A DNA stretch of 64,000 nt from Clostridia bacterium (GCA_050951325.1 JBMNIW010000001.1:32001-96000); one strand, 5' to 3'; numbered from the stretch's first letter, positions 26,661 to 37,115 are shown. Program-made: numbers and translations. Notes: a model not told the origin generated them from the sequence alone.

Positions 26661-27206
26661 TCAAACACGAAGATAACCTCTAAAACCTCTTGATGCATAA
26701 TAGGATTCCGCACCATTGTGGTAGACAAAAACAGTATCATATCTTTTATCGCAGAACAATGCTCCTCCCAGCTTCCTTATACGCTCAGGAGTCTTTACCC
26801 AGCTTGATGTCTTTGTATCAAAATCACCCAAACTCTGCAACTTGTGGTACTCTTCCACCGTTAAAATCTCTATGCCCATTTCTTTTGCCATGCCAAGAGC
26901 ACTGCCTGTTGGCTTGTTTGCTTTCCTGGATTCCCATGCTTCATTATCGTAACACAGGCTTCTCCTTCCCGCAGGACTTTCAGGAGAACAATCAAAGAAA
27001 ACATACTCATCCTTCTCCCTGTCGTACGCCACCATGTCAGGCTCTCCTCCACTTATCTCCATTTTCTGAAGAACCTTGAGCTTTTCATCGTTTGACTCAA
27101 GTTTCCCAAGTACATCCTTCCATTCAATACCTTCATGCCTGTTTCTATTCTTCTCAAAACGTTCCCTTAATGTATCCAAAAGCTTGTTTCTTTCTTCTTG
27201 TTTCAT
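26661..27206 (-). CDS. DUF4256 family protein
   Basis: 'RFEKN.NRH..IEW', 'GGEPD', 'ESPAGRRSLCYD', 'DTKTSSW', 'YHNGAESYYASRGFRG'. Confidence 0.9.
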   Translation of the reverse strand: MKQEERNKLLDTLRERFEKNRNRHEGIEWKDVLGKLESNDEKLKVLQKMEISGGEPDMVAYDREKDEYVFFDCSPESPAGRRSLCYDNEAWESRKANKPTGSALGMAKEMGIEILTVEEYHKLQSLGDFDTKTSSWVKTPERIRKLGGALFCDKRYDTVFVYHNGAESYYASRGFRGYLRV

Positions 27207-27223
27207 ATATTATCCCTCACGTT

Positions 27224-29118
27224 TCAGCTTCTCTTTCTTACGATAATAAAAACAATTAAAACCAACGCCCCTGCACCTATAACTATTAAATATGCTGCAC
27301 CAAACTCATTATCCTCAATGCCTGTATCAGGGGTATTTGTCACATTCGGTGTGGGACTTGGACTATTTGTCTCTTCTGCATGAGTTTCCTCAGCACCCAT
27401 TGTTGGCTTGGGTGTGCTGGTGGCACTGCTTTCTGTAAGAACTGGAGTATCCGTAGGACGGGTTGTTTCCTCCCCTGCGGTAGGTTTAACAGGCTCCAGT
27501 TTTGGTATTATCTCCGTTAGTTCATCCTTGCATACCGAGCATACCTTCTTTTTAAGACCTTCTTCATGCTCAGTAGGGTTCTTAACTATAATCCAGTCTT
27601 CATATGTGTGGTCCTTCTTTGGTATAATCTCGGTACTTAATATAGAACCACATATACTGCAAATAGTCTCCTTCTTTCCATTACTTGTACATGTTGCCTC
27701 CGTTATTTCCACATGGGTTGATTCATGCCTGCAATCCTGCTTTACAAACACGGCATTCACAACAAGGTCCTTGTTTGGCATTTTGCCAGGCAGGTTAGGT
27801 TCCCATCCAACAAAATCATATCCTGGTTTTTCTGGAGCTGCTGGCAAAATGATACTGTCACCTTCCTTGTATACTTGTGTTGTATACACACTGCCATCAA
27901 CCTTGTATGTCACAGTATATGTAAACTGTATGGTATCAAGGTTGACACTGCCATTTGTGACATATGTATCATCATTAGGTGATATGTATTGGTAGTATGT
28001 AAGAATGTTGTTCTTTATGGTGAAGTAATAGATGTAGCCGTTTGATGTGTTTGGCGTGGCTATTTCCATGCTTTTTCCTGTAACCGTATCATACGCAAAC
28101 ACCTTTGTCGGAGTGTTGTAGAACAAATATCCATTATACTCACCAAGACCTGTAAAACAACCTTTCCAATAAGAGCCACCTCCTACAACCGGCCACATGT
28201 CCTGTATCGTGAACAGCTGAGTACTTTTATTGGTGCCAAAATCATACTTGTACAATGTGGAATTTGAGCTGTTTATGTAATACCAGCTTCCTCTTACGTA
28301 AGCAAAAGGAGCATCCACATCTCCCCAGAAGTAGTTGTCATACCTGGTCGAATTTGCTGGATAATTACTGTTCCAGGAGTAGTGATCCGTATCTTTTATA
28401 CCATCATCACTTCTAAGGAAATTATCATGTTTTACCCTTCCTGGTTTGTCCATAATTGGATCGTCCCATGTTACATCTACATGATACCACTTTCCATCAA
28501 TCTTTATTAAATTCCAAATATGGTTCATCAAGTCACTTTCAGCATAAACACTTCAATGCCAAGCTTTTTCAATACTGCCATGTATGCAAGCGTGTATGAC
28601 TGGCATACACCTTTTCCCTCCTTGAAATAGCTGTATGCATCATTTATTTCCAAATCCATATCATATTCATAATTGGCAGCAAGATAGTCATGCACATACA
28701 AAGCCTTTTCAATATCACTCAATCCAGATGGCACACTCTTTACAATGTCATCAACGAACTGATTGTATTCCTTCCTTGCATTAGCCAAAGCATTTCCCGT
28801 CATCTTGTATGAAGGAATCACTTTGATTATTGTGTTGTTAACCATCTGTATTTGATACTGGTATTCAACATAAAAAAGTTCAGGACTCTCATAAAGAATC
28901 GAAAAGTATGTATCTCTAACATCAGACGCCATCGATGTAGACAAATTCAAAGGCTTTAAATCTATTTCTCCAGACACTGATGAAAGCCCGGAGTATATAA
29001 CGTTGTACAAATCATTGCTCTGGCTGTGAACTGGGACATATGCAAGGCTTGATACACAAATGAGAACCAGTGTCAATACGACCAAAACCGTCCTTCTAAA
29101 GTTTATTCGTTTAGTCAT
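27224..29118 (-). CDS. Surface-anchored transglutaminase-like (Cys-His-Asp) protein, split by one frameshift near 28540
   Basis: Upstream ORF has a signal peptide and 'GVCQSY' (catalytic Cys); downstream ORF begins 'NHIWN...WYHVDVTWDD' (His, Asp), then an InlB-B-like repeat, CxxC repeats, a T/P linker and a TM. The triad is split across the two ORFs, so this is one gene. Confidence 0.8.
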
Positions 29119-29678: not shown

Positions 29679-29803
29679 ATGAAATAGTTTACTATCAAGA
29701 GTCTGAGTCACCGAACTACTTCCGCCACACTATATGGTTTTTTTGCTACGTTTTTATTGTCGTATGCTACAGCTGCGTTCTCCTTAACGATAATTCCCTA
29801 TTC

Positions 29804-30202
29804 TCACATCATATTCATATGATGATGCGTATCCACATGTTGCTGCATATCCATATGTTGCTGCATATCCATACGATGATGCGTATCCATATTAAGTTGC
29901 ATCTGTTCATCCATCTGTCTCTGTAATTCAATCTGATTCTGAATTTGCATGTTTATTTCCTGTTGCTGCATCTGATCCATAAACAATTGCTGCTGCATCT
30001 GAAACTGTCTAAGTTGTTCCTCGTTTTGCATTCGGTTAACCATTTGTTGATGCTGGTCTATGTTGTTGTTATAAAGCGTCTGCTGGTTATTATATGGTTT
30101 GTTTTTATTAACTATATAGACTATTGTAACTATCATACATACTAGAATTATTGCAACCACTACACATACAAGGAAACCGATAACAAGTATCATACTAAAC
30201 AT
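29804..30202 (-). CDS. Single-TM protein with Q/N/M/H-rich low-complexity tail
   Basis: RBS AAGGAG, ATG 30202; long hydrophobic N-terminus, then QQQ/MDMQQH/DTHH repeats. Confidence 0.7.
   Translation of the reverse strand: MFSMILVIGFLVCVVVAIILVCMIVTIVYIVNKNKPYNNQQTLYNNNIDQHQQMVNRMQNEEQLRQFQMQQQLFMDQMQQQEINMQIQNQIELQRQMDEQMQLNMDTHHRMDMQQHMDMQQHVDTHHHMNMM
29821..29890. repeat. Short coding tandem repeats (18-bp period)
   Basis: ATGTTGCTGCATATCCAT twice, flanked by two copies of GATGATGCGTATCCA. Confidence 0.75.
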
Positions 30203-30230
30203 ATTACAACTCTCCTTTATTATTTTCTGT

Positions 30231-30264
30231 ATTATATTACATTTCCGGGACAAAAAATTGCACT
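30231..30264 (-). promoter_or_regulatory. Conserved element copy 1: AGTGCAATTTTTTGTC-CC-N10-TATAAT
   Basis: 16-mer at 30249-30264 is identical to copies 2 and 3; -10 box at 30231-30236. Confidence 0.8.
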
Positions 30265-30361
30265 AATGATATTAATATAAAGTATATATTCATTTTCTGG
30301 TGTTGCCTGTTATTATGACCGTACGGCATATTAGAGACATTCACAGTTCCATTTGGGTCTT

Positions 30362-30397
30362 AAAAGCTGTCGCATATTTTTCTATACGACAGCTTTT
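30362..30397 (-). terminator. Intrinsic terminator after lipoprotein gene
   Basis: AAAAGCTGTCG...CGACAGCTTTT. Confidence 0.7.
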
Positions 30398-30410
30398 TGT
30401 TCTAACTACC

Positions 30411-31016
30411 TTAATGGTTATATCGCAGAAAAGATTGTGTTATTAGATAAGATAGATCCGCATTCATCATAAGTACTGACTCTTCTGTAAAATAGAAAGT
30501 CCATACAACGTAATTGTTTGAAGATATAACGCAACCCTCTAAAGCGCCAAAAACACCATCACATATTAGTCCATCCTCATTCGACATTTTTATTTCAACA
30601 TCGTGCAAATTATATACTGTCGTACTTAGTCCGTTGTGAATAAACGCTTCCATATGTATGGCATTACCATCATAATAGACATATTTTGGACTTATAACAA
30701 CCATATTATCGCCTGTATTTGGGACGTTGCTTATGAAGACGTTATTCGGATTAGCAGTTTCGTTTGCAGGCTCTTCAGTCTTTTGAGGCTTATCTGTCTC
30801 TTGTACCCCATCAGTTTTTGCAGGCTTCTCTGTCTCTTGTATCCCATCAGTTTTTGTCGGATCTTCAGTTGATTCGTCAATCCCAGGATTTTTGTTTTCC
30901 GAATCCGTAACACTAGGTGTCTGCTCATGATATTCTAGAATATCATTTTCTGTGCGAGCACATCCTACAGTTAAAACTGTTATTAATACTGTTATAAGAA
31001 TAAAAACTTTTTTCAT
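30411..31016 (-). CDS. Lipoprotein with SLAP-like C-terminal domain homologous to the kinase ectodomain
   Basis: RBS GGAGG, MKKVFIL..., lipobox TVGC; T/E/K/P linker with a 12-aa repeat; domain 'VVISPKYVYYDGNAIHMEAFIHNG'. Confidence 0.75.
   Translation of the reverse strand: MKKVFILITVLITVLTVGCARTENDILEYHEQTPSVTDSENKNPGIDESTEDPTKTDGIQETEKPAKTDGVQETDKPQKTEEPANETANPNNVFISNVPNTGDNMVVISPKYVYYDGNAIHMEAFIHNGLSTTVYNLHDVEIKMSNEDGLICDGVFGALEGCVISSNNYVVWTFYFTEESVLMMNADLSYLITQSFLRYNH
30786..30856. repeat. 36-bp tandem duplication in the lipoprotein linker
   Basis: Encodes KTDGIQETEKPA / KTDGVQETDKPQ. Confidence 0.75.
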
Positions 31017-31054
31017 AAGATTACCTCCCGAAGTTAATGGTCTTTGTTGTGTAT

Positions 31055-31088
31055 ATAATAACAAAGTAGTAAGACAAAAAATTGCACT
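31055..31088 (-). promoter_or_regulatory. Conserved element copy 2: AGTGCAATTTTTTGTC-TT-N10-TATTAT
   Basis: 16-mer at 31073-31088; -10 box at 31055-31060. Confidence 0.8.
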
Positions 31089-31160
31089 GTTTATATACTA
31101 TTCTAAGCGTGGCATATCTGTAGCATAGAAGCTAAGTCTCATAATGTACACTAGATGTTA

Positions 31161-31751
31161 TTACTTGAACTTAACACTAATCCTTTCATTGTTATAATGC
31201 AAATCAAAAATATAGAGTGTTGAAATATGAAAAGTTAGACTATCAGCTTCTTTGTAACCATTAAAATAATACTCAAACTCACGTCTTTCACCGGATGCAA
31301 TGTCACCATCCAAAAAGTCATTCATATGTATGATTAAGTCTAATGGATACTTTTTCCCGGTACCATCCAAAACATATGCATCCATAGGGCTAAACTGTAT
31401 GTTTTGAGTTTTATGTTTGTTCTCCATTATACCTTTTACAACCAAAAAACTTCCATCTATCTTGTATCCGGTTATTGTAATCACTAGATTACCACCTACT
31501 GCTGTACCTTCAGCATTGGTATCGTTAAAACCATCTCCCGCCGGTGTTTCTTGCGGATGTTTTCCTGGAGTATTTGTTTTTTCCGCTGGATTGTTTGTAG
31601 TCTGTTCAACAGGTTCATTCGTAGCTTTTCCACCAGGTTCCGACGTTTCTGATATTAGCTCACCAACTGTAGTATCGTTGTCGTCCCAATCCTTGCAACC
31701 TACCATGAATACGATTGCTAGAAATATAATTACAAGCAGTGTTTTCTTCAT
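31161..31751 (-). CDS. Lipoprotein with Ig-like (DUF4352-like) domain
   Basis: RBS GGAGG, MKKTLL..., lipobox MVGC; linker; 'LVVKG.MEN', 'LDGTGKKY', 'GDIASGE.RE...YF'. Confidence 0.72.
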   Translation of the reverse strand: MKKTLLVIIFLAIVFMVGCKDWDDNDTTVGELISETSEPGGKATNEPVEQTTNNPAEKTNTPGKHPQETPAGDGFNDTNAEGTAVGGNLVITITGYKIDGSFLVVKGIMENKHKTQNIQFSPMDAYVLDGTGKKYPLDLIIHMNDFLDGDIASGERREFEYYFNGYKEADSLTFHISTLYIFDLHYNNERISVKFK

Positions 31752-31794
31752 ACATAGCCCTCCCCCATATATTAGCGTATTGTAGTACATATCT

Positions 31795-31828
31795 ATGATA
31801 TCAAGTATGAAGGACAAAAAATTGCACT
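31795..31828 (-). promoter_or_regulatory. Conserved element copy 3: AGTGCAATTTTTTGTC-CT-N10-TATCAT
   Basis: 16-mer at 31813-31828, 4 bp after the kinase stop; -10 box at 31795-31800. Confidence 0.8.
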
Positions 31829-31832
31829 ATTT

Positions 31833-33581
31833 TCAATTTACTATCCGTTTGCATGTAGCCTTCCATTTAATATGCGTCAAGTCCACATCTGTCTTTTTTA
31901 CATACTTGCCTTCAAACACCAATGTATAAATTACTATTTCCTTAGAAGCAATCTTGCTATTCACTACAGTTGAAAATGCCTTCGATGCAATAACATTCTC
32001 GTTCTTGTCAAGAATTGTTATTTTAATATTTTTTACTCCATCTATGTCGATATCATAGCCATTGTAAAAAAACGCAACCATATAAAGCTTTTCGTCTTTA
32101 AAATATATATTCTTAGGTGAAATAATCACTTTGTTATCGGCCTTTAAACTTTCTTCAAAATCAGCCATATAAAACTGCGTATCAGTGTATACTCTGTCCT
32201 TTCTCTTACCGACATTTAATACAAATAATAATGCACTAATAACAACTAAACATAACACTATGCCAACTGTTCTTCTTGTTTTCTTTGACTTATCACGTTC
32301 AGTGCTTTCTACTAAGTTCAACAAATATTTTTTGTGTATTAAATGCAACTCCTGTTTAAGCTCTGTGACACTCATATATCTGGCTTCCGGGTTCGGATGC
32401 ATGGCTTTTTCGATAACATTAATAATATATTCAGGTGTGTTTTTGCAATACTTTCGATTCAAGTTAGCAGGAGGATTAATACCTTCCACTAAAAAATAGA
32501 GCAATGCACCAAGGCTATAGACATCACTCCTCTGATCGCAAACACCTTTGTTTAGCAATTCCGGTGCCGAATACCCAAAGGTTCCTACAGAGGGCATTTC
32601 ACGAATATAGTCTTTTTTATGACTAAGCAATGCAGTACCGAAATCAACCAAATAGAGGCGGTTATCATTGCCCAAAATAACATTGCTTGGTTTGAGATCG
32701 TTAAAGATGACCGGATTTTTCTCGTTATGCAGATATTCAATAATGTTACACAACTCAATACATTTCTTTATTGCATTAGATGCAGCCAATGGCCCTGATT
32801 CTTTTAACAAGTCATTCAGATTTCTACCATCGATATAATCCATAACAAGGTAAACGGTTTGATTGTCGTAGAATACATCATATATTCTCGGAATACCTTC
32901 GTGATTAATAGATAACAAAACCTGCTTTTCGTTCTCAGTATAAATCTTATCTTTCAGTTCATAGTTAATTTCTTTTACAGCAACATATATATCAAGATTG
33001 ATATGATATGCCTTAAACACTCTCCCGCCGCCACCGCTTCCAATCAGTTCATCAAGACGACAATAACCTCCAACAATATCGTTGACTTCTGCCTGTAATT
33101 TCTCAGGCGACGGCTGTATGTCATCCTTGTCCAATATTTTAAGTTCATAAAGAACTTTTCCAATAACCAAAAAAATCTCAACACACAACTCATAGTTTAC
33201 ACTCTCAGTCATTATCGTTGATGTATTATGAGCACTCAAATTACGTATGATTCTTATCCTATTTAGCCTATTTAGGGTTGTTCTATCAAAGCTGTATCCT
33301 TTTTTACTTAATTCCTCAAAGTTTTTCATAAAATCAGACTCAATATAACGGTCATCTAATATGTCTGATAAAACATAATGTAACAAGCTTAGCAACTCAA
33401 TTACTAAAGTAAAATAATCACTAACCTGTTTCCCGGAATTTAGTCTTTTACAGAGTTCAACCCACTTCTTTTTTACTTCCTGCTTGTTACTGTATTTGTA
33501 GGTCGCTTTATTCTTCATTTCCCTAGATTTTATATAATCGTCCAGTTTCATTATTTTGCTCATCTGACTGCCCCTATTCAT
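31833..33581 (-). CDS. Membrane Hanks-type Ser/Thr kinase with N-terminal HEPN/DUF4145-like domain and C-terminal SLAP-like ectodomain
   Basis: GSGGGGRV, VAVK, FNDLKPSN, DFG, GTFGYSAPE, DVYSLG; N-terminal 'LNRIRIIRNLSAH'; TM 'VGIVLCLVVISALLFVL'. True start may be MSKIM at 33563. Confidence 0.88.
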   Translation of the reverse strand: MNRGSQMSKIMKLDDYIKSREMKNKATYKYSNKQEVKKKWVELCKRLNSGKQVSDYFTLVIELLSLLHYVLSDILDDRYIESDFMKNFEELSKKGYSFDRTTLNRLNRIRIIRNLSAHNTSTIMTESVNYELCVEIFLVIGKVLYELKILDKDDIQPSPEKLQAEVNDIVGGYCRLDELIGSGGGGRVFKAYHINLDIYVAVKEINYELKDKIYTENEKQVLLSINHEGIPRIYDVFYDNQTVYLVMDYIDGRNLNDLLKESGPLAASNAIKKCIELCNIIEYLHNEKNPVIFNDLKPSNVILGNDNRLYLVDFGTALLSHKKDYIREMPSVGTFGYSAPELLNKGVCDQRSDVYSLGALLYFLVEGINPPANLNRKYCKNTPEYIINVIEKAMHPNPEARYMSVTELKQELHLIHKKYLLNLVESTERDKSKKTRRTVGIVLCLVVISALLFVLNVGKRKDRVYTDTQFYMADFEESLKADNKVIISPKNIYFKDEKLYMVAFFYNGYDIDIDGVKNIKITILDKNENVIASKAFSTVVNSKIASKEIVIYTLVFEGKYVKKTDVDLTHIKWKATCKRIVN

Positions 33582-34502
33582 TTATTCTATATAGTATGAC
33601 AAGCATTGTTCTGCAGACCGTATCATATCGTTTCTTAATTCTTCGGGCTCAAGCACAATTGCAGATGAACCATAACTCCTAAGCCACCTTTTGAAGCTGT
33701 TTATGCCTGCAATTGTATCCTCATATATTATGTAACCCTCATATTCTGTTATCTTCTTGTTTTTCCTGTGGGACAAATCCCTTTTAACCTTATAAATTAC
33801 ATTTGCCTCGTCCAAAAACTTTACTTTTACGTTGAATAGATTACCTTGTTCCATACCCCAGCTATACTCAAGAAGACTCTCGACATGCTCCACTCCAATA
33901 GGCTCGAACCTTTCATTAGTTGCTTTAATCTCTATCATTCTGTCAAGCCTGTACGTTGCAATTCTTCCATTGTGCTGTCCTATGATGTAAACCATGTTAT
34001 CTATTTCATAATATACAATCCTCAACGGTTCTATTAAAAAATCGCTTGTTTTATATCTTGTCTTGTACTTTACCTTTAGCTTCTTCCTATTCTCTATAGC
34101 TAGTGTGATAATCAGGAACTTGTCCTTTTGTTCAGCTAAACCATGTGTAGACTTTATCCTAATACCAAGGATCTCATCATCAAAAAACGCATTTGCAACA
34201 AGACTTTCAAATAGGAACTTCTCCACTGAGTTAATGCACAAATAAACAATATCATCACTGTCCTCTTCATCCTCGCATGCAATATTCCATGTCATATCAC
34301 CCAAATCCATTATTGCGTCTTCATGTTCCTCACTGTAAATATCAAGAAGTCTGAACTCAGGGTTGTATGATATGAGCTCAAGATTGCGCAAGACAACACC
34401 CTCAGGTACCTTCAAGATATTTGCCAGCTGTTTTGTCGTAATTCCCCTGTTATTTGCAATAATAGCTATAAGTTGCAGCATCAGGCTCATGTCTTTCTTC
34501 AT
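33582..34502 (-). CDS. HTH-WYL-WCX transcriptional regulator (PafC-like)
   Basis: N-terminal HTH 'ITTKQLANILKVPEGVVLRNLELI'; WYL core 'AIENRKKLKVKY...IEPLRI.Y....YIIG....IATYRLDRM'; WCX 'WLRSYGSSAIVLEPEELR'. Confidence 0.88.
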   Translation of the reverse strand: MKKDMSLMLQLIAIIANNRGITTKQLANILKVPEGVVLRNLELISYNPEFRLLDIYSEEHEDAIMDLGDMTWNIACEDEEDSDDIVYLCINSVEKFLFESLVANAFFDDEILGIRIKSTHGLAEQKDKFLIITLAIENRKKLKVKYKTRYKTSDFLIEPLRIVYYEIDNMVYIIGQHNGRIATYRLDRMIEIKATNERFEPIGVEHVESLLEYSWGMEQGNLFNVKVKFLDEANVIYKVKRDLSHRKNKKITEYEGYIIYEDTIAGINSFKRWLRSYGSSAIVLEPEELRNDMIRSAEQCLSYYIE

Positions 34503-35675
34503 ATTTGATACCTACCCCGTAACTTTTTAAAATTCTTTCATATGTATTTCGCATTAAGTCTTTCAATTCATTTGGGGAGATGACCCTGCAGGAAGAGCCA
34601 AAGCTCCGCAAAAAACGAGCAAAGTCATGCATCCCATAAATTGTATCTTTATAAATTATTGTCTCCCCGAAAACTGACAAACTACAGCTTTTTCTTAATC
34701 TTTTCAGCCTTGTTAATCTTTCCATAATGTTAAACTTGTTATCAAATTCAACAACAACATCAAACGGGCCGTCGAGCGATGCTCCAAACATTAACTCTAA
34801 TTTTTGCATCACATTGTCGTCCTTGTAGCACTCATTTCTTATGTTTGTAGATTTTATTTCAATAATAGAACTAATATCAATAAAGAAGATTTCGTCTTTA
34901 ACCTTACCGATAACATAACTTTTATCGTTATCGTAATGGTAGAACAGAGTAATAACCTGAACGATTACGGATAGTTTTCCTACCTTTGAGTTATATGTTA
35001 TTTCTAAAGACTTTCTTCTATAATCACAGGTTTCAAACTCATCAATATTTCTCAAAAGATGTTTGCTTATACGATATCTTCTACCGATAGAATATATGTC
35101 GTATTCATCCTCATAAGGCATTGTTTGAGTTATTATTTTACTTTTCAGGGAGTGAAGAATGTCGTTGAGCGGAAGATGATGCTTGTACAAGTTTGAGAGT
35201 TCTAAAAAGGCATAAAGATTAACATCATCTGTTTTATACAGAAAATCAGACGTAGCAGACAGACAGCATTTGTTGTTCTCATCAATGTATATCAAATTGT
35301 TTTCAACACATAGTTCTATCGCCCTAATAATGGTCTTTTCACTGAAACATCAGCGTCGCACAGACTTTCTTTAAGCATTTCAACAAGTTCTCTGTGTTCA
35401 AGTCTGCCGTTACACTCACCAACGGTCAACAAAATTTTAATAACTCTCAAATCAGTGTTGCTAAGAAGCATTCCTTTTTCGTAATCGTCTTCAACCAACA
35501 CGTAATTATTGTTTTTTCTCCTTATGTTGTATCCCAGTTTTCTAAGATCCTTTATATAATAGCTTACACTGCGATTGCTAATATCCAACAACATCTTAAT
35601 TTCATCGAAAGTAATCGTATTGTGTGTCAAAAAATGGTGTATCAACTTGTTTATTTTTTGCTCCTTTACGCTCAT
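34450..35675 (-). CDS. HTH-HTH-WYL-WCX transcriptional regulator (PafB-like), split by one frameshift near 35345
   Basis: ORF 35316-35675 has HTH 'TFDEIKMLLDISNRSVSYYIKDL'; the alternative frame continues 'SEKTIIRAIELCVENNLIYID' into ORF 34450-35295, which ends in WCX 'FLRSFGSSCRVISPNELK'. Confidence 0.78.
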
Positions 35676-35729
35676 TAAATTCCTCCGAATACCTCCACAT
35701 CAATATTAGGTTATTTTTAAGTTATTGGT

Positions 35730-35757
35730 ATTATACACCATAATCCTAGTCAGTCAA
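35730..35757 (-). promoter_or_regulatory. Sigma-A promoter of the WYL-WYL-kinase operon
   Basis: TTGACT-N16-TATAAT on the minus strand. Confidence 0.65.
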
Positions 35758-35818
35758 GCTTCTGAGCTATACAAAATGTAACACAAATATAGCATGTGAA
35801 TAAAAATTGGAGCATAAT

Positions 35819-35850
35819 AAAAGGAATGGAACCAATTAGCTCCATTCCTT
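35819..35850 (-). terminator. Terminator after flagellin
   Basis: AAGGAATGGA...TCCATTCCTT followed by T residues on the minus strand. Confidence 0.7.
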
Positions 35851-35870
35851 GATTACTATACACTAGTTAC

Positions 35871-37075
35871 TTATTGAAGCAGCTGCAGTACTGACTGTGG
35901 TGCCTGGTTGGCCTGAGCCAGCATTGCTGTAGCAGCTTGTGCCAGGATGTTGTTCTTGGTGTACTCCATCATTTCGTTAGCCATGTCAACGTCACGAATA
36001 CGGCTTTCAGCCGCAGTAAGATTTTCAGCTGATGTATTCAGGTTGTTGATGGTATGCTCAAGACGGTTCTGGTATAGCACCAAGTTTAGCTCTTTCCTCA
36101 GAAACCTTGTTTATTGCCTTGTCTATGGTGTCAATCGCTGCAGTCTGCGATCAGTGTCTGCTGCTTACAGAAACATAAGCAACATCCAGAGCCTCCGCTG
36201 ACATGTCACCAATGAGAAAGATCTATGCTCTGATCCTTATTGGCACCAATCTGGAATGTCATGCGTACCCATCAGCTGCACGTAACATTATCTGCTTCAC
36301 TCTGTTGTCCTTCACCATTGCCTCGCTTGTAGTAGATAATGATGTATCATCTTTTACCACCGTAACGGTATCTCTTTTGTCGCCAATCGTCAACGTCTTC
36401 TAGATATATCTTCTTCTGTCCAAATCGTCTTTAGTAAAGGATCACCTGAGCCTACATTCTTTCCTACCTATAATTCACATCAAATCGTTAATCTCGATGA
36501 TAGCTCCAACATGTTCACTCAGACTGGTATCCTCGTCATATGTTAATGTACTGAGTAATTTCAAATGTATCACCTAAAGCAAGTGTCACTAACAGTAATT
36601 GAATCTAGCATATTCGGCATTTGTACTCTGTATCGACCTTGATACTTATACACCACGATCACCATTCAACAGTGTCTTCTCGTTAAACTCGGTTTGCTCA
36701 GCAATTCTTGTAAGTTCCTCCTGAAGCTGATCTACTTCATTCTGTAAAGCTGTACGGTCTACTCACTTCATTTGTATCAGTAGCTGCCTGTACTGCTAGC
36801 TCTCTCATTCTTTGAAGAATTGAGTGAGTTTCGTTTAGTGCGCCTTCTGCAGTCTGAATGAGTGAAATTGCGTCCTGTGAGTTCTTGGAAGCCATCTTGA
36901 GACCACGGATTTGAGCTCTCATCTTTTCGGATATGGCGAGACCAGCTGCGTCGTCTCCAGCTCTGTTGATTCTGTAGCCGGAAGAAAGCTTCTCAATTGA
37001 TTTCTGGATGTTGTTGTTGTTAACTCCCAAATACCTTTGGGCATTCATTGCCATTAAGTTGTTGTTAATTCTCAT
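35871..37075 (-). CDS. fliC: Flagellin, interrupted by several single-base indels (assembly error or recent pseudogene)
   Basis: N-terminus MRINNN...[27 protein letters not shown]; shifted frames give [55 protein letters not shown]...[11 protein letters not shown]...QSVLQLLQ. Confidence 0.92.
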
Positions 37076-37080
37076 TATAA

Positions 37081-37115
37081 TTCCTCCTTGAAATTTAATA
37101 TTCGGCATCCTTGCC
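37081..37115 (-). promoter_or_regulatory. CsrA-binding sites in the flagellin leader
   Basis: Hairpin GGCA-AGGA-TGCC (37104-37115) and a second AGGA within the Shine-Dalgarno AAGGAGGA, as in Bacillus hag. Confidence 0.7.

Follow-up and report, generated by a model that had tools for sequence, protein, structure and literature searches.

Tandem WYL regulators, a HEPN-like kinase receptor and three envelope genes behind PafBC-like promoters in a Clostridia bacterium

Transcription regulators that combine a helix-turn-helix (HTH) domain with WYL and WCX domains are common in Firmicutes (PMC6789036). In Actinobacteria, the LexA-independent response to DNA damage is activated by the WYL heterodimer PafBC, whose two adjacent paralogous HTH-WYL-WCX genes lie in one operon. 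The two subunits have unequal WYL domains, with RxxR arginines that bind single-stranded DNA (ssDNA) (PMC11804915). PafBC-dependent promoters have no -35 element and follow the consensus tGTCgg(N10)tA(N3)T; the HTH of PafB reads the GTC at about -26, the HTH of PafC holds region 4 of the sigma factor, and the regulon comprises about 150 genes (PMC8635444). This 'sigma adaptation' was described for mycobacteria, with wider use within mycobacteria suggested by its authors (PMC8635444), and such a mode of regulation may be common to WYL regulators at large (PMC6789036). DriD of Caulobacter is a homodimeric, ssDNA-activated WYL activator with a small regulon, which binds two half-sites around an A/T-rich centre in the palindrome ATACGAC(N7)GTCGTAT (PMC10853764). 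Here we describe a locus at positions 29804-35757 of a 64,000-nucleotide stretch (the window, JBMNIW010000001.1:32001-96000) of the genome of a Clostridia bacterium (GCA_050951325.1), with all genes on the minus strand: a rare gene set of an anaerobic-digester bacterium, consisting of two WYL regulators (WYL1 and WYL2) and a membrane kinase with a putative RNase-like domain (the HEPN-kinase), followed by genes for lipoprotein E, lipoprotein F and a Q/M/H-rich membrane-anchored protein (Table 1). On balance, we lean towards a tiny local regulon of envelope genes that is driven by a heterodimeric WYL activator resembling PafBC, with the HEPN-kinase as the membrane sensor of this activator.

The 16-mer AGTGCAATTTTTTGTC is present in three exact copies (30249-30264, 31073-31088 and 31813-31828), one before each envelope gene, and has no match with up to two mismatches elsewhere in the 3,082,766-base genome. 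When the window was shuffled and up to three mismatches were allowed, a mean of 1.67 matches was obtained and 25 of 100 shuffles reached three; because shuffles reach this number so often, we put the weight on the exactness of the three copies and on their uniqueness in the genome. None of the three promoters was listed by a sigma-70 scan, and no -35 hexamer is found at a distance of 16-18 nucleotides (nt). Together with their counterparts in Clostridium paridis and C. ganghwense they form a gapless alignment of six promoters, all without a -35, reading GTG-N9-TGTC-N12-TAnnnT, in which the distance from GTC to TAnnnT is always 12 nt, the spacing of the PafBC consensus; by our reading of this alignment, three of the six carry a TGn extended -10. 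The pattern GTGMAAWWWWWTGTC-N12-TANNNT, derived from these same six sites, gave six matches in four whole genomes (3, 1, 2 and 0) and none in the reversed control, and each site lies directly upstream of a gene for a Q/M-rich, SLAP or DUF4352 protein beside a WYL pair or a HEPN-kinase. A first degenerate pattern, AGTG-N8-TGTC-N12-TANNNT (6, 2, 3 and 0 sites against 1, 1, 2 and 1 in the control), was dropped as at once too loose and too strict, having missed the site beside the C. ganghwense kinase. A non-palindromic site with an A/T-rich centre would fit two unlike HTH domains.

The WYL2 family is small, with 18 proteins at E ≤ 0.001 (774 candidates, 5.8 billion clusters), 14 of which are 41-49% identical to WYL2. 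Three relatives were found among 141 candidate stretches when one genome per species was scanned (185,579 species). With WYL2 as query, 3 of 40 genomes of relatives matched, the window's own included and the other two weakly (8.8e-6 and 1.4e-4); in a class-wide sample (400 genomes drawn, two of which could not be scored) 3 of 398 reached E ≤ 1e-25, again with the window's own counted and the other two distant and in a different context. No relative was present among 96 stretches of viral contigs, and the plasmid and phage collections gave no match.

Tandem overlapping HTH-WYL-WCX paralogues occur in all four loci compared, namely the window, C. paridis, C. ganghwense and a metagenome-assembled genome (MAG) of Lachnospiraceae. 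The C. paridis locus begins with an intact WYL1, continues with WYL2 and the kinase (41% identical over 470 amino acids (aa) to the window kinase), and then has a terminator, the motif and genes for a Q/M-rich protein, a 91-aa protein and a SLAP lipoprotein; in two genomes the start of the kinase gene abuts or overlaps the stop of WYL2. In C. ganghwense a motif-bearing operon for a Q/M-rich membrane protein and a Q/M-tailed lipoprotein is located directly upstream of WYL1-WYL2, with no kinase beside the pair; the orthologous HEPN-kinase (625 aa) is encoded about 460 kb away on the same contig, and downstream of its gene come a hairpin resembling a terminator, the motif and a gene for a DUF4352 protein. 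Since the motif is present at both of these separated loci, it ties the WYL pair, the kinase and the envelope genes together without adjacency.

A preliminary description of the window had noted the three envelope genes, two for lipoproteins and one for a Q/M/H-rich transmembrane (TM) protein, each behind an identical element, and had drawn the analogy with PafBC; the three exact 16-mers agree with the former, and the promoters without a -35 and with GTC exactly 12 nt upstream of TAnnnT with the latter. Of the linkage it proposed for the module, the motif and the Q/M-rich gene hold in all three close-family genomes, and the adjacency of the kinase in two of them, the third having its kinase and motif elsewhere.

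Two more distant arrangements were observed. In genome G136 (L018 5923-10463) an overlapping tandem WYL pair (453 and 341 aa) is convergent to a 705-aa protein with a HEPN_Swt1 domain (81.5 bits), and open reading frames (ORFs) that we read as DNA methyltransferases adjoin it; the association of a WYL pair with a HEPN protein may be older than the kinase fusion. In G088, a single WYL relative stands beside genes read as cas genes.

WYL1 and WYL2 share 30% identity. The RxxR motif of WYL2 (YRLDRM) is intact, and R188 does not vary among the 16 family members; R..R is present in 12 of the 16 and its second arginine in all of them, while none of four WYL1 orthologues has RxxR. The model of WYL2 (predicted local distance difference test, pLDDT, 72.2) matches the folds of DriD (E = 2.2e-12) and PafBC (9fnd_X, E = 6.7e-11), both with probability 1.00, and more weakly those of CapW and BrxR (E = 2.8e-07 to 1.4e-05). 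At the sequence level, a profile of the 16 family members matched 6sj9 among the PDB sequences with E = 0.0061, over the WYL domain alone, and PDB searches with C. paridis WYL1 and the window HTH fragment returned nothing meaningful. For the predicted complex of WYL2 with the C-terminal fragment of WYL1 the score was 0.72, and the highest of three control scores was 0.00 (among solved complexes 116 of 157 reach the mark used, among mismatched pairs 2 of 215); at least 77% of contacts are shared between the runs, the partner has a pLDDT of at least 78, and the main predicted interface is formed by the C-terminal WCX helices. The heterodimer proposed in the preliminary description thus passes its controls as a prediction, which shows likeness rather than proof, as solved WYL dimers exist and the prediction covered the heterodimer only.

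In the window, WYL1 is one gene split by a 1-nt frameshift, where its orthologues are single ORFs of 409, 453 and 434 aa. Apart from this break both fragments are open, and their identity to the orthologues is 45-49%; the C-terminal one, which overlaps WYL2 by 53 nt, matches the PADLOC WYL model (E = 1.7e-14) and is 49% identical to C. paridis WYL1. The same break is found in a 99%-identical metagenome contig (L011) and in a 7029-nt contig of DNA run X9 (on 29700-36075, 0 gaps), although the latter may share its source with the window, so that its independence is uncertain. Programmed frameshifting was rejected, as we read no X XXY YYZ heptamer at the A4 run. As there is no slippery site and the break recurs in further assemblies, we take the frameshift to be a true mutation of the lineage rather than an assembly slip or a programmed shift, and it may have impaired the switch in this lineage. 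The two overlapping, co-oriented HTH-WYL-WCX genes and the kinase had been recognised correctly as gene content, but the first gene now consists of two ORFs, and for this genome 'self-contained' is not supported.

The receptor joins a kinase to a rare N-terminal domain. The catalytic motifs VAxK, D-x-K-x-x-N and DFG are present in the window protein and in eight of the nine aligned homologues whose sequence extends over the kinase domain (P0026 stops short of the catalytic loop; P0032 is degenerate), and the best NCBIfam kinase match, PknB_PASTA_kin, reached 154.6 bits, far under its cut-off of 450. An exhaustive HMMER search of 1.84 billion representatives with the N-terminal 165 residues found 13 proteins at E ≤ 0.001; ten were scanned with Pfam, three short fragments being left out, and of these nine are kinase fusions and one is a spurious match to a repeat protein. 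A word-index search with residues 1-170 returned no protein beyond the query itself. DUF4145, a family of the HEPN clan, is sub-threshold in the window kinase (18.8 against a cut-off of 23.1, residues 71-126) and above the cut-off in two of ten scanned homologues (P0026, 28.8; P0028, 24.1). Of 11 aligned sequences, 9 retain the R-N-x-x-x-H motif, which the C. ganghwense kinase also has; in P0021 an asparagine replaces the histidine, and in P0032 the motif is missing. P0032 has also degenerate kinase motifs (DLNPDN, DFR) and no ectodomain; this joint loss, a single case, hints that the HEPN-like and kinase activities are coupled.

The AlphaFold model of this N-terminal domain (pLDDT 77.1) gave no Foldseek match at E ≤ 0.001. 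VIA-align against 48,161 chains placed nine rows at the top (Z 8.6-10.9, root mean square deviation 3.0-3.9 Å over 112-121 residues), at values of Z, under about 13, which for helical bundles can reflect a common arrangement and are not decisive; four of the nine are titled HEPN, the remaining five we take to be of HEPN/DUF86 type, and Csm6, AbiA, RnlA, LsoA and Las1 rank lower. The ESM Atlas search stayed under the meaningful level (top score 0.83), a cluster at rank 25 with DUF4145 on 27% of its members (0.79) being a lead only, and hhalign detected no similarity between the kinase N-terminus and the Swt1-type HEPN of G136. On motif, profile and fold taken together we call the domain HEPN-like, as the preliminary description had done from its RNxxAH motif, with a putative RNase activity.

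The ectodomain of the window kinase and the C-terminal domain of lipoprotein F are paralogues (BLASTP E = 6e-12). The C. paridis kinase carries, in place of SLAP, the domain of window lipoprotein E (38% identity, E = 1e-26), that is, ectodomains were swapped between orthologues. Lipoprotein E itself has no Pfam match; a C. ganghwense protein (209 aa) that by inspection is of like build matches DUF4352 (PF11611, 28.4 against a cut-off of 25.9). We read an ectodomain of like build also in the C. ganghwense kinase and in most database relatives, by inspection rather than by pairwise comparison. Since the sensor ectodomain and the regulated proteins come from the same two domain families, this speaks for a common ligand or for a direct relation of sensor and decoy. 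The C. paridis lipoprotein shares 30% identity with lipoprotein F (E = 2e-25), whose linker contains 36-nt tandem repeats (30763-30846, minus strand) encoding TDG(I/V)QETEKP units.

Q/M-rich counterparts of the third envelope protein, alike in composition and position, follow the motif in C. paridis and C. ganghwense, and BLASTP between the counterparts is not significant (E = 0.14). The tail is more likely cytoplasmic than surface-exposed, because lysine residues come after the TM helix. In C. ganghwense, a 427-aa lipoprotein (L009 5621-6904) has a C-terminal Q/M/N-rich tail which shares the local sequence FMNSLNNNQ...SVTPFDMGGYVQG with the neighbouring small Q/M-rich protein; a lipoprotein can thus carry the Q/M-rich module as a fusion.

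Parts of all six genes are represented in contigs from three RNA libraries, which differ from the window in 0-1 letters, and a 614-nt contig of RNA library X17 (30417-31030) corresponds to lipoprotein F from ribosome-binding site to stop. In X17 and X19, which are contigs of low-share runs, most of the kinase and WYL genes is uncovered, and this is uninformative. We regard these contigs as weak evidence of expression, as they indicate presence only, not levels or ends, and DNA carry-over is possible.

Compared with PafBC, the locus has in common the two adjacent paralogous genes, the non-palindromic element, WYL domains that are unequal and the fold of WYL2. However, the pair is not orthologous to PafBC, no Pup-proteasome locus is nearby, the targets are envelope proteins and not a DNA-repair regulon, and one to three envelope genes per genome stand against the large regulon of PafBC. 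In addition, an upstream GTG half-site is conserved, WYL1 lacks both RxxR arginines, which PafC keeps, and the pair is coupled to a HEPN-kinase. DriD is the best structural match of WYL2 and has likewise two half-sites around an A/T-rich centre and a small regulon, but it binds its palindrome as a homodimer, whereas two subunits and a non-palindromic GTG-N9-GTC are found here. BrxR and CapW have the HTH-WYL-WCX fold and control neighbouring genes, and distant relatives of the window pair lie in defence islands; they differ in being homodimeric repressors encoded upstream of a defence operon, in contrast with a locus in which PADLOC-DB 2.0 recognised no defence system and the sites lie before envelope genes.

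For the receptor, PrkC/Stk1-type PASTA kinases of Firmicutes are built alike, with a Hanks-type kinase in the cytoplasm, a single TM helix and a sensor domain outside the cell, but the window kinase has a SLAP ectodomain (or DUF4352, in its relatives) instead of PASTA repeats, an additional N-terminal HEPN-like domain and a co-encoded WYL pair. In Ire1 and RNase L, too, a single polypeptide contains a protein kinase and a HEPN-type domain, to which Ire1 adds a TM sensor domain. In the bacterial protein the order is reversed (HEPN-kinase-TM-ectodomain) and the HEPN part is DUF4145-like and not KEN, so that the likeness is one of architecture only, with no whole-protein homology. In the part of the 2013 HEPN survey that we drew on, KEN-kinase fusions are listed for eukaryotes only, and no Ser/Thr kinase is listed among the DUF4145 fusions (PMC3710099). 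Full-text literature searches, supplements aside, found neither a description of a module of WYL pair and HEPN-kinase nor the combination of HEPN-like domain, Hanks kinase and swappable ectodomain.

We propose that the WYL pair would form a heterodimer and activate transcription under the control of a ligand, as a member of the PafBC/DriD class. This heterodimer would bind the non-palindromic GTG-N9-GTC, with GTC 12 nt upstream of the -10, in promoters without a -35, and would replace -35 recognition in a manner resembling sigma adaptation. WYL2, in which the ligand-binding arginines are kept, would be the sensing subunit, and WYL1, with its degenerate WYL domain, would mainly supply the second HTH. 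The regulon would be very small, a Q/M-rich membrane or cytoplasmic protein together with SLAP or DUF4352 lipoproteins. The co-transcribed HEPN-kinase would form the transmembrane input and signal to the WYL pair; since its ectodomain is paralogous to the regulated lipoproteins, feedback of the output proteins on the sensor or on its ligand is probable.

Several observations weigh against this proposal. The assignment of the motif to the WYL pair rests on co-occurrence in three genomes only, and the more distant Lachnospiraceae MAG pair has neither a kinase nor a motif in the right register. WYL1 is frameshifted, yet the three promoters are identical and the target genes intact, which is not what strict dependence on an intact heterodimer would lead one to expect. 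Promoters with a TGn extended -10 could fire without a -35, and repression is thus conceivable. The conserved GTG about 12 bp upstream of GTC is not part of the PafBC consensus, the sequence kinship to PafBC is marginal and the fold match to DriD is the better one. The success of the heterodimer prediction may reflect the model's memory of solved WYL dimers, with hetero- and homodimers not distinguishable, and the specificity of the GTGMAAWWWWWTGTC pattern is partly circular because it came from the same sites.

If the WYL pair were a repressor, GTG-N9-GTC would be an operator over the -35 region, released by a ligand or by phosphorylation. The site does cover the expected -35 position, the TGn extended -10 of three promoters points the same way, and BrxR and CapW, whose types of WYL regulator are repressors, are among the fold matches of WYL2; moreover, a broken WYL1 would de-repress the targets, which would fit the RNA-library contigs on them. 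We nevertheless find repression improbable, as the three promoters with neither -35 nor TGn would be weak alone, the top fold matches are activators, and a register between GTC and -10 that is fixed across three genera is needed by an activator contacting RNA polymerase and not by a repressor. An anti-phage or abortive-infection module, with the HEPN-kinase as toxic effector (RNase and/or kinase), the envelope genes as accessories and the WYL pair as its nucleic-acid-sensing regulator, like BrxR and CapW for BREX and CBASS, seems to us unlikely too. The kinase domain scores against the PADLOC mad6 (E = 2.1e-50) and PD-T4-6 models, but a comparison with PADLOC-DB 2.0, suggested in the preliminary description as a check for a known defence system, brought up only generic kinase and WYL models, with no system-specific partner and nothing for the three envelope proteins. 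The modelled resemblance of the N-terminal fold to HEPN toxins, the restriction-modification island around the G136 pair, the putative cas genes of G088, the patchy distribution over species and a G+C content lower than that of the flanks (0.347 against 0.407 and 0.412 in the 10 kb on each side) would suit defence. On the other hand, relatives are absent from the viral, plasmid and phage sequences searched, the motif stands before the envelope genes and not at the operon promoter that drives the kinase, and a TM receptor whose ectodomain is paralogous to the regulon suits envelope sensing rather than intracellular phage sensing.

That some other protein reads the motif, for instance an alternative sigma factor or a regulator that the kinase phosphorylates, and that the WYL pair acts on different targets, perhaps its own operon alone, is very improbable. 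The conserved GTG...GTC and -10 could in principle form a two-block sigma promoter, and one C. ganghwense copy of the motif lies beside the kinase with no WYL gene nearby; but the second copy lies right beside the WYL pair, the -10 is a standard housekeeping-type TATNAT, and no gene for a sigma factor or other regulator is conserved across the loci. Independently of these alternatives, the locus may be a decaying remnant in this genome, in which the frameshift disabled the switch and the three genes are expressed only by read-through or at a basal level, a possibility that we take seriously but doubt. The break is present in three assemblies, the second WYL1 ORF has no start codon with a recognisable ribosome-binding site before it (nor a slippery site that would restore the frame), no terminator separates the kinase gene from that of lipoprotein E, and the neighbouring flagellin and transglutaminase-like genes also look broken. 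The lesion is, however, single, with WYL1 otherwise open and conserved; the remaining genes are intact, as are the three 16-mers, the C-terminal fragment of WYL1 is still predicted to dock on WYL2, and the organism is widespread, 15 DNA runs holding 0.98-0.99 of the sampled words.

The activator proposal can be extended into a complete chain from cue to promoter with a logic like that of Ire1 and RNase L, which we consider a long shot. An envelope cue would dimerise the HEPN-kinase through its SLAP or DUF4352 ectodomain, kinase-driven dimerisation would activate the HEPN RNase, and the released RNA fragments would be the ligand read by WYL2. The WYL heterodimer would then adapt the housekeeping RNA polymerase to the -35-less promoters and induce the lipoproteins, which, bearing the sensor's own ectodomain, would titrate the cue and close the feedback loop. 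If true, a nuclease and a nucleic-acid sensor would make up a pathway from membrane to promoter that resembles second-messenger signalling, and sigma adaptation would be seen for the first time outside Actinobacteria.

Table 1. Features of the locus, in order of transcription; positions are counted from the first letter of the window.
Feature	Position	Strand	Remarks
Operon promoter, WYL-WYL-kinase	35730..35757	-	TTGACT, 16 nt, TATAAT; no AGTGCAATTTTTTGTC copy
WYL1 N-terminal fragment, winged HTH, 119 aa	35316..35675	-	Pfam HTH_11 26.8 bits; aligns to N-termini of intact orthologues
WYL1 frame shift at A4 run	35336..35339	-	Downstream frame continues the orthologous sequence; no slippery heptamer read
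WYL1 C-terminal fragment, 281 aa (linker, degenerate WYL, WCX)	34450..35295	-	Pfam WCX 27.7 bits
WYL2, HTH-WYL-WCX, 306 aa	33582..34502	-	Pfam WYL 35.7 bits, WCX 40.1 bits
HEPN-like/Ser-Thr kinase/TM/SLAP-ectodomain receptor, 582 aa	31833..33581	-	Start codon abuts WYL2 stop
HEPN-like domain, residues ~24-152	33126..33512	-	RNLSAH near residues 112-117
Protein kinase domain, residues 177-390	32412..33053	-	Pkinase 146.9 bits; VAVKE, DLKPSN, DFG
Single TM helix, residues 435-460	32202..32279	-	Hydropathy scan
SLAP-type ectodomain, residues 482-572	31866..32138	-	TIGR04398 36.9 bits, cut-off 28.5
Promoter 1	31795..31828	-	AGTGCAATTTTTTGTC, 12 nt, TATCAT; begins 5 nt past kinase stop codon
Lipoprotein E, 196 aa from MKKTLL	31161..31751	-	Lipobox MVGC; DUF4352-like C-terminal domain
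Promoter 2	31055..31088	-	AGTGCAATTTTTTGTC, 12 nt, TATTAT
Lipoprotein F, 201 aa from MKKVF	30411..31016	-	Lipobox TVGC; SLAP TIGR04398 38.1 bits, cut-off 28.5
Inverted repeat after lipoprotein F	30362..30397	-	15-nt arms, 93% complementary, 6 nt apart; terminator-like
Promoter 3	30231..30264	-	AGTGCAATTTTTTGTC, 12 nt, TATAAT
Q/M/H-rich membrane-anchored protein, 132 aa from MFSMIL	29804..30202	-	TM helix; 94-aa tail with Q27 M16 N10 H8 D7

The promoter of the WYL-WYL-kinase operon is the top sigma-70-type match of the scanned region (11 of 12 positions), just downstream of a terminator-like hairpin of the flagellin gene (35821-35850); the inverted repeat after lipoprotein F was not among the matches of the consensus terminator scan. 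Neither an integrase nor a repeat boundary was seen around 29804-35757, and the low G+C content, together with the unrelated contexts elsewhere, is consistent with horizontal acquisition. The window neighbours are flagellar, GAF and transglutaminase-like genes. A link to flagellin and flagellotropic phage, suggested by this position, was rejected, as none of the loci in C. paridis, C. ganghwense and the Lachnospiraceae MAG is next to flagellar genes, their neighbours being unrelated. The adjoining flagellin gene (35871-37108, minus strand) is broken into short ORFs by many frame changes. Contigs of other runs, RNA libraries included, lack single bases at 9 or more places between 36076 and 36765, and the near-identical contig L011 has an open 156-aa C-terminus; the window flagellin therefore carries 1-nt insertions absent from the environmental population, through either decay specific to the strain or misassembly of a multi-copy gene. 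On the other side, the transglutaminase-like gene (27224-29118, minus strand) is seemingly split into two ORFs overlapping by 4 nt: the catalytic cysteine (GVCQSY) ends a 196-aa ORF, and the His/Asp part (NHIWN...HVDVTWDD) opens a 435-aa ORF, followed by Listeria-Bacteroides repeats. Downstream of it, a DUF4256 protein (293.4 bits; 26661-27206, minus strand) appears unrelated to the module.

Should the pair be only a local repressor of a few lipoproteins, it would be a modest addition to the WYL family. We regard the tandem WYL regulators of the locus, with their PafBC-type promoters, as a second and independent lineage, combined with a receptor architecture that our literature searches did not bring up: a Clostridia lineage unrelated to PafBC has the same register between GTC and -10, with no -35. 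With a regulon of one to three promoters per genome, mechanism and ligand would be workable with few constructs, and the receptor might provide a testable route from an envelope signal to a nucleic-acid signal.

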